Shown: one piece after another, positions 61,561 through 61,654 of the stretch | Numbering within the stretch: the stretch's first letter is position 1 | How the letters are laid out: the number at the start of each line of letters is the position of its first letter | DNA from: Escherichia coli | Lineage (GTDB): Bacteria; Pseudomonadota; Gammaproteobacteria; Enterobacterales; Enterobacteriaceae | Reading direction: 5' to 3' (one strand) | Length of the DNA: 64,000 nucleotides | Assembly (NCBI RefSeq): GCF_050920415.1 | Contig: NZ_CP169309.1 | Program-made: the position numbers and the translations under genes | The notes under the pieces: generated by a model | Told to the model about the DNA's origin: nothing | Databases searched by the model: none | Seen by the model: only the letters and a program-made list of their open reading frames with translations

Positions 61561-61654
61561 AAAAATCACGCTTCAGGGCTAAGTAAAACGCTGTCTCTGC
61601 CGCTAATATGGTAGGGTTTATATAAGAGACAGCGTAATCAGGAGTAACCGACCG

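Follow-up and report, generated by a model that had tools for sequence, protein, structure and literature searches.

The intergenic region between ldcA and cvrA of E. coli harbours a real and conserved paired element, an 11-bp perfect inverted repeat, and the hairpin that this repeat can form in RNA most likely marks the end of the ldcA transcripts. cvrA is transcribed from promoter elements located between the two arms. With a confidence somewhat better than even, we read the repeat as a leaky 3'-end hairpin of ldcA, devoid of a U-tract, whose loop contains the cvrA promoter. The element is of an ordinary kind and compactly laid out, and it brings no new principle. The repeat had been pointed out by a model that read the letters of the DNA alone (hereafter the sequence-only reading), which overlooked that conservation is highest in the loop rather than in the arms, and that this loop is the cvrA promoter.

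Sequence, predicted fold and genomic setting of the repeat

In the window, that is the whole stretch of 64,000 nucleotides of E. coli DNA that was analysed, the genes ycgR (+), emtA (-), ldcA (+) and cvrA (+) follow one another as in the RefSeq annotation of matching E. coli genomes, and the annotated start codon of cvrA is a TTG at 61655. The ldcA-cvrA intergenic region is 94 nt long and identical in sequence to that of K-12; the coding sequence flanking it differs from K-12 by 2.5%. Since the window is E. coli DNA and the intergenic region is that of K-12, the published K-12 maps could be applied to it by means of a checked coordinate conversion (NC_000913.3 coordinate = 1303726 minus window position). 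The features discussed below are collected in Table 1.

Table 1. Features of the ldcA-cvrA intergenic region and of its two flanking genes, in window positions
Feature	Position	Strand	Remarks
ldcA	60646..61560	+	upstream gene; hairpin in the 3' UTR of its transcripts
FliA-type motif TAAGTAAAACGCTGTCTCTGCCGCTAAT	61580..61607	+	-35-like TAAGTAAA (61580-87), 11-nt spacer, -10-like GCCGCTAA (61599-606)
5' (left) arm ACGCTGTCTCT	61588..61598	+	also the 11-nt spacer of the published FliA-type motif; -37..-27 relative to the A61624 start
26-nt loop	61599..61624	+	predicted sub-structured; most conserved intergenic block
-10-like hexamer TAATAT	61604..61609	+	7 nt upstream of the G61616 start
Extended -10-like TATGgTAGGGT (TRTGn + TAGGGT)	61607..61617	+	7 nt upstream of the A61624 start
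cvrA start G61616	61616	+	NC_000913.2 1241333; 5' UTR 39 nt (PMC3415461 supplementary file 2)
cvrA start A61624	61624	+	NC_000913.2 1241325 = NC_000913.3 1242102; 5' UTR 31 nt; two methods
3' (right) arm AGAGACAGCGT	61625..61635	+	+2..+12 of the transcript from A61624
ldcA transcript 3' end ('novelTTS')	61640	+	NC_000913.3 1242086, 5 nt after the stem; PMC6131387 Supplementary Data 1
cvrA translation initiation region	61640..61657	+	AGGAG 61640-44, TTG start 61655-57; outside the stem
cvrA	61655..63391	+	downstream gene; nested promoter and read-through from ldcA

As the sequence-only reading had claimed, ACGCTGTCTCT (61588-61598) and AGAGACAGCGT (61625-61635) are 100% complementary and separated by 26 nt. 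It had also placed the end of the 3' arm 5 nt before the AGGAG of cvrA; four bases (AATC) separate the end of the right arm at 61635 from the AGGAG at 61640-61644. RNA folding, which it had proposed as a check, gave a predicted hairpin (54 nt) of -21.9 kcal/mol against -9.2 +/- 2.5 in shuffled sequences (z -5.1, 0/200; a second estimate of z is -4.8). The predicted shape is a rod made of the 11-bp outer stem, in which 6 of the pairs are G-C, a 7-nt bulge (61618-61624), a 3+3-bp inner helix (61599-61601 with 61615-61617 and 61603-61605 with 61612-61614) and a 6-nt loop. Perfect inverted repeats of at least 11 bp with spacers of 3-50 nt occur 8 times in the window versus 1.2 +/- 1.5 times in dinucleotide shuffles, so that a single such repeat per 64 kb is unsurprising and the count proves nothing for any one of them. 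It is from the z-score of the fold, together with the compensatory changes between genera described below, that the repeat is seen to be more than chance.

The arm sequence has its sole occurrence in the window here (at 0 mismatches), and the element is single-copy; a dispersed intergenic repeat (REP/BIME, ERIC or MITE) was ruled out by its median of one place per E. coli genome. An Rfam scan of 60500-62500 yielded chance-level snoRNA matches alone (E 0.6-10). A scan for consensus promoters and terminators flagged a weak inner hairpin, not the repeat, and no promoter; the promoter was missed because the actual promoters are weak or of the extended -10 type. On the minus strand, 61620-61631 reads CTGTCTCTTATA, the 12 nt with which the Tn5 mosaic end and the Nextera adapter begin. 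An IS50/Tn5 relic or a MITE was considered as the source of this match and rejected, since the element is single-copy, its orthologues diverge gradually and its loop is the best-conserved part; the match is a coincidence. Reads of this site might be wrongly trimmed as if they held adapter sequence.

Transcription of cvrA from within the loop

Two start sites of cvrA, A61624 and G61616, were mapped by Kim et al. (2012; PMC3415461), and SMRT-Cappable-seq (Yan et al. 2018; PMC6131387) independently placed the start of the cvrA operon at 1242102, which is 61624. At TATGgTAGGGT the sequence agrees with a sigma-70 extended -10 element (TRTGn, a -10 hexamer with A2 and T6, and a start about 7 nt downstream), whose R-T-G is conserved in 80/80, 80/80 and 74/80 of the loci compared. 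Because both starts lie inside the loop, cvrA's own mRNAs are devoid of the 5' arm and cannot form the hairpin; the RNA from 61624 to 61700 is predicted to be unstructured (-7.3 kcal/mol, z +1.4). A third start assigned to cvrA lies inside ldcA, at 61360, with a 5' UTR of 295 nt (Kim et al. 2012; PMC3415461), and transcripts from it would include the whole hairpin. No transcription start of the K. pneumoniae cvrA orthologue was found in the published data searched.

The invariant RTG had suggested a mini-ORF in the loop (ATG GTA GGG TTT ATA TAA, 61608-61625). This candidate was rejected: it has no SD, and neither its length nor its frame is conserved, its counterparts being of 2 aa in Klebsiella and running on in Citrobacter and Salmonella. 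The RTG is read instead as part of TRTG, the extended -10 consensus. A search for literature on a sRNA at cvrA found none, and the 'cvrA' matches in PMC4372424 proved to be false.

The left arm coincides exactly with the 11-nt spacer of a sigma-28-type motif. Fitzgerald et al. (2014; PMC4183435 Table 2) assigned to cvrA a FliA ChIP-seq peak that is weak (FAT score 2) and has the motif TAAGTAAAACGCTGTCTCTGCCGCTAAT, and a FliA site has also been reported upstream of Salmonella ycgO; in having both a ChIP-seq site and a motif, the region resembles FliA promoters. Compared with TAAAGTTT-N11-GCCGATAA, the spacing of 11 fits, the -10 element matches at 7/8 positions, with CGC in place of the key CGA, and the -35 element TAAGTAAA matches at 3/8 and resembles that of trg. 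The CGA is near-invariant in the -10 elements of FliA promoters, whereas it is CGC here and CGT or CGC in relatives. The level of cvrA RNA was 43 versus 28 without FliA, a difference that is not significant (PMC4183435), a lacZ fusion of the region was highly active and FliA-independent, and the Salmonella ycgO reporter was unaffected by mutation of the -10 element or deletion of fliA. The mapped cvrA starts suit -10 elements of the sigma-70 type.

The 3' end of the ldcA transcripts

The suggestion of the sequence-only reading that the repeat could be an ldcA 3' stem-loop is in agreement with SMRT-Cappable-seq data, in which the ldcA transcript begins at a TSS at 1243110 and ends, 5 nt beyond the stem, at a novelTTS (1242086), while part of the transcripts continue into cvrA (PMC6131387). 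Three operon variants are reported there: b1192, b1192|b1191 (the 'novel' ldcA-cvrA variant) and b1191, the last with its TSS at 1242102 (61624). The cells had been grown in M9 and in rich medium, and the read counts at the ldcA TTS are small: on the first condition sheet, 17 of the 55 reads from the TSS end at the TTS, 12 pass through and 3 end within 50 nt downstream, and on the second the corresponding numbers for 35 reads are 13, 0 and 15.

Term-seq (Adams et al. 2021; PMC7815308) revealed no 3' end at 1242060-1242199, and none on either strand at 1242100-1242199. The only nearby 3' end in those data is a strong one at 1242058 (61668), 13 nt into cvrA, with which the 15 reads of the second sheet ending within 50 nt of the TTS would be compatible. 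One guess is that it reflects an exonuclease stopped by a ribosome on the start site. Combined with the starts at 61616 and 61624, this end would give leader fragments of 45-53 nt, or else ldcA transcripts may end there. In the Rho-region table of the same study, cvrA has an antisense entry only.

The very site of the ldcA 3' end is listed among the leaky terminators of operon variants, as a novelTTS with read-through, and most sites listed with it have a GC-rich stem followed by poly-U (PMC6131387). Here the stem is followed by AAUCAGGAG and, in orthologues, by UAAUUCAGG, UUAACAUUG or UCAGGCGGG; the absence of a U-tract and the 26-nt spacer mean that it is not a canonical intrinsic terminator. 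It resembles a Rho-independent terminator by its stem-loop with an RNA 3' end within a few nucleotides, and departs from it by these same two traits, an intrinsic terminator having a short loop of 3-8 nt and a U-tract. In the work of Dar and Sorek of 2018, U-tract-less 3' stem-loops are reported to delimit the stable ends of mRNAs that are terminated by Rho or processed, and exonucleases are said to stop at them. The ldcA hairpin shares with these its stable stem, a 3' end 5 nt further on, the missing U-tract and the location in the 3' UTR of the upstream gene; it is unlike them in that the promoter and the starts of the next gene are in its loop.

The following course of events may be proposed. 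Transcripts from the ldcA promoter would carry both arms in their 3' UTR and would fold, as plus-strand RNA, into the stable rod-like hairpin, which would define, and probably protect, the 3' end of the monocistronic ldcA mRNA 5 nt past the stem. The hairpin would be leaky, so that some transcripts would run on into cvrA. We infer that the hairpin causes or stabilises the 61640 end, and since it is without U-tract two routes to this end may be considered: a termination that is U-tract-independent or factor-assisted, or, more likely, the trimming of the RNA back to the stem by a 3'-to-5' exonuclease after termination or cleavage downstream. Transcripts of cvrA would start inside the hairpin and possess the 3' arm only, in an open 5' UTR.

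Such an arrangement would explain the partly independent expression of two co-oriented genes that are 94 nt apart. One short element would end most ldcA transcripts and house the cvrA promoter; whether the hairpin can form would depend on where a transcript originates. It would also give a structural reason for the published but uninterpreted 'novel TTS' and 'novel operon variant'.

Conservation and covariation in Enterobacteriaceae

A scan with CvrA gave 80 loci, which represent about 30 genera but neither Salmonella enterica subsp. enterica nor K. pneumoniae; ldcA is directly upstream of cvrA in 79/80, with a gap of usually about 100 nt. In the alignment of these 80 loci the best-conserved intergenic block is the loop and not the arms: T61609 is present in 80/80 and always preceded by a purine, G61610 in 74/80 and A61605 in 70/80.

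The two arms are found again in Escherichia, the Citrobacter freundii group, Silvania and Enterobacter, where their inner sequences differ, namely CTCT/AGAG in E. coli, TTC/GAA in Citrobacter, GA/TC in Silvania, ATCTG/CAGAT in E. soli and TAC/GTA in E. chuandaensis. The register of the pairs is fixed by the invariant GCTGT/ACAGC. The pair next inward is C-G, U.G, U-A, G-C or A-U, with 0 mismatches in the 19 valid sequences, so that all four Watson-Crick types occur at one pair; the following one is A-U or U-A, and U.G intermediates are found within Escherichia. In an ungapped alignment of 12 sequences, 86.8% of the cells pair versus 33-47% when the partners are slid by 1-3 columns, the covariation score is 0.152 versus at most 0.045 and is reached by 0/500 shuffles, and 2 pairs (5 cells) have changed on both sides. 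In an alignment of 30 distinct sequences fitted by a covariance model, which leans towards the structure to which it is fitted, 83.1% of the cells pair versus 23-57% after sliding by 1-3 columns, 4 pairs (14 cells) have changed on both sides and 0/500 shuffles reach the score. The orthologous hairpins of Citrobacter, Enterobacter, Silvania and E. soli have z-scores of -2.8 to -4.2.

When the upstream and downstream halves of the region were taken from 32 groups, halves of the same group paired at -17.0 kcal/mol versus -13.8 kcal/mol for cross-group combinations (permutation p < 5e-5). In Enterobacter the right arm is still complementary although it lies 4-6 nt away from its usual place with respect to promoter and SD. 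The sequence-only reading had named a lack of conservation and covariation of the arms as what would refute it; the compensatory changes across genera speak for a real paired element. Covariation by itself does not tell an RNA helix from an inverted repeat acting at the DNA level. A strand test based on the G.U pairs of the whole upstream and downstream halves was neutral, 38 sequences favouring the plus strand and 40 the minus strand.

RNAalifold did not recover the repeat from the plain MAFFT alignment, in which the right arm is thrown out of register by indels; all that it returned was a weak and invariant alternative (AAAC.CUG with UAG.G.UUU, -2.2 kcal/mol) free of covariation. The ungapped subset and the covariance model were used because MAFFT also misplaced gaps when applied to the hairpin alone. 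Little or no pairing is seen in Salmonella arizonae, C. amalonaticus, C. sedlakii, Raoultella, Franconibacter and Buttiauxella. As S. arizonae keeps the left arm AAAACGCTGT without a matching right arm, part of the conservation of the left arm may reflect promoter function.

Longer intergenic regions, with inserted G+C-rich hairpins downstream of the -10 block, are present in Phytobacter, Pseudescherichia, Intestinirhabdus, Kosakonia and Atlantibacter. The loci with hairpins between the -10 block and the SD are L014, L016, L032, L035, L052, L062, L066, L071, L073, L075 and L078.

Translation of cvrA in read-through RNA

A cvrA leader structure affecting translation, the other RNA role offered by the sequence-only reading, finds no support for cvrA's own mRNAs, which start at G61616 and A61624 in the loop and are without the 5' arm. 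Nor is masking predicted in the read-through RNA, where the accessibility of the SD and start codon is unchanged: the mean unpaired probability from the SD to start+5 is 0.51 in the long RNA, 0.50 in the RNA from 61616 and 0.47 +/- 0.05 when the upstream half is shuffled. These accessibility figures and those below are thermodynamic predictions only. According to them, the E. coli hairpin should be self-contained and leave the ribosome-binding site of cvrA unmasked, and the same is predicted in the Citrobacter freundii group.

These predictions bear on the idea that the hairpin lowers cvrA translation in the ldcA-cvrA read-through RNA, the promoter-derived RNA without 5' arm being translated freely. 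The location of the promoter between the arms and the existence of read-through RNA agree with it. In addition, Kluyvera, Yokenella, Pseudocitrobacter, Pluralibacter and S. arizonae have, at the position of the left arm, a segment that can pair with the SD-to-start region (for example GTCCAATGTTC with GAACATTGGAC). In these the predicted accessibility falls to 0.07-0.29 in the long RNA versus 0.36-0.55 in the short one, below nearly all controls with a shuffled upstream part, and the outer repeat CCACCTCAAT/ATTGAGGTGG of Enterobacter covers the SD. However, the stem stops 4 nt before the SD in E. coli and in the Citrobacter freundii group, the native E. coli accessibility is higher than that of ~90% of the controls, and across all 66 sequences the long RNA does not differ from the control (p 0.89). 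We consider such a translational effect of the hairpin improbable. A fold-back block of the read-through RNA is plausible, on the predicted pairing, in Kluyvera, Yokenella, Pseudocitrobacter, Pluralibacter and S. arizonae.

Fold-back inhibition of read-through transposase mRNAs has reportedly been described for IS10 and IS50 by Davis, Simons and Kleckner in 1985 and by Schulz and Reznikoff in 1991. In these elements the helix covers the SD and the start codon and blocks translation. The ldcA-cvrA region resembles them by a native promoter located between complementary segments and by a helix that forms only in transcripts entering from outside; it is unlike them in that the stem stops before the SD and that the accessibility is not predicted to change in E. 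coli. Apart from the 12-nt coincidence with the Tn5 end, the sequences of IS10 and IS50 are unrelated to the repeat. A broader reading, which we put forward tentatively and think rather doubtful as a whole, is that of a promoter in the loop: the conserved hairpin would end or limit the ldcA-derived transcripts and exempt those of cvrA, and sister genera would have re-targeted the segment to the SD and start codon, thereby silencing the read-through RNA. If true, this would be a chromosomal housekeeping counterpart of IS10/IS50 fold-back, by which the K+/H+ antiporter is insulated from expression of the gene upstream. The switch from one genus to another between a self-contained hairpin and pairing with the ribosome-binding site would form a small natural series on the insulation of read-through RNA.

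Complementarity of up to 11-14 bp between the left-arm position and the SD-to-TTG segment was noted in the Kluyvera, Pseudocitrobacter, Yokenella and Pluralibacter loci L023, L028, L031, L033, L037, L051 and L057 (at about 2925-3010), with a predicted masking of the start codon in read-through RNA. In the window, CAACGAACGGTTAC, internal to ldcA (61459-61472), is complementary at 12/14 positions to the cvrA SD-to-start segment GTAACCGACCGTTG (61644-61657), 171 nt apart.

Other explanations of the repeat

Besides the ldcA 3'-end hairpin that we favour, the complementarity could have no selected function, each arm being constrained separately and the pairing inherited from one ancestral accident. 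The left arm would then be conserved as the spacer and -35 region of a promoter, and the right arm because it belongs to the initially transcribed sequence and the 5' UTR. About one perfect 11-bp repeat per 64 kb is expected by chance, 7 outer pairs never or rarely vary and carry little information, the independent compensatory events are few and the strand test is neutral; the left arm of S. arizonae without partner and the many genera in which the pairing is missing are likewise compatible with such an accident. It accounts less well for the compensatory changes at the pairs that do vary, with four Watson-Crick types at one of them, for the Enterobacter right arm that is shifted yet complementary, for the greater stability of own-half over cross-group pairs and for an RNA 3' end located 5 nt past the stem. 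We hold it to be unlikely, while giving it more weight than the two explanations that follow.

The remaining proposals place the function in the DNA or on the other strand. A dimeric or looping regulator could repress cvrA by binding to arms that bracket its promoter (about -32 and +7 relative to A61624). The arms do flank the core promoter, several genera conserve the outer half-site AACGCTGT/ACAGCGTT and the neutral strand test leaves room for a DNA-level element. However, the centres of the arms lie 37 bp (about 3.5 helical turns) from each other, unlike those of dimer operators, the inner arm positions covary through four pairs, unlike what a protein reading identical half-sites would leave, the distance between the arms varies from 24 to 32 nt among genera, and the literature found names no regulator here but RNA polymerase-FliA; the dimeric regulator operator envisaged by the sequence-only reading is, on the first two of these grounds, unlikely, and a repressing operator of either kind has very little probability. 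Still less is to be granted to an antisense terminator, in which the minus-strand hairpin followed by UUUUACUU (UUUUAUU in Enterobacter) would halt transcription that leaves cvrA in the reverse direction. On the minus strand the hairpin is as stable as on the plus strand (-23.6 kcal/mol in 100 nt) and the A-run before the left arm, a U-run on the minus strand, is conserved, but this run is equally explained by a FliA-type -35 element. Term-seq gives no 3' end for either strand between 1242100 and 1242199, neither a gene nor a known RNA has that orientation, and the covariance model, which was built on the plus strand, scores that strand far higher.

Variation within E. coli

The segment 61583-61640 is identical in 4840/5424 E. 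coli records. A61624C is the sole change in 553 records (553/5417); this substitution affects the mapped start itself and gives a stem of 12 bp. Uncompensated changes of the left arm were found in two sampled records, G61590A in strain Y5 and T61592C in AR_451, and the corresponding hairpins retain -16.5 and -17.8 kcal/mol, respectively.

In HB101 (locus L089, NZ_CP184671.1) an IS5 is inserted between the ldcA stop codon and the hairpin and promoter, at CTAA (61579-61582 in the window), with duplication of this target. ldcA and cvrA are there ~1.2 kb apart, and the hairpin and promoter still adjoin cvrA. Twelve E. coli matches to the chromosomal intergenic region fall on records typed as plasmids. 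In the closest genome and several others (L001, L002, L083), cvrA is annotated as a pseudogene 'missing C-terminus'. The cvrA ORF of the window is intact and encodes 578 aa (3' end at 63370-63391), with which K-12 CvrA aligns to residue 571 only; at the 3' end of K-12 cvrA are a partial IS1414 and ymgM.
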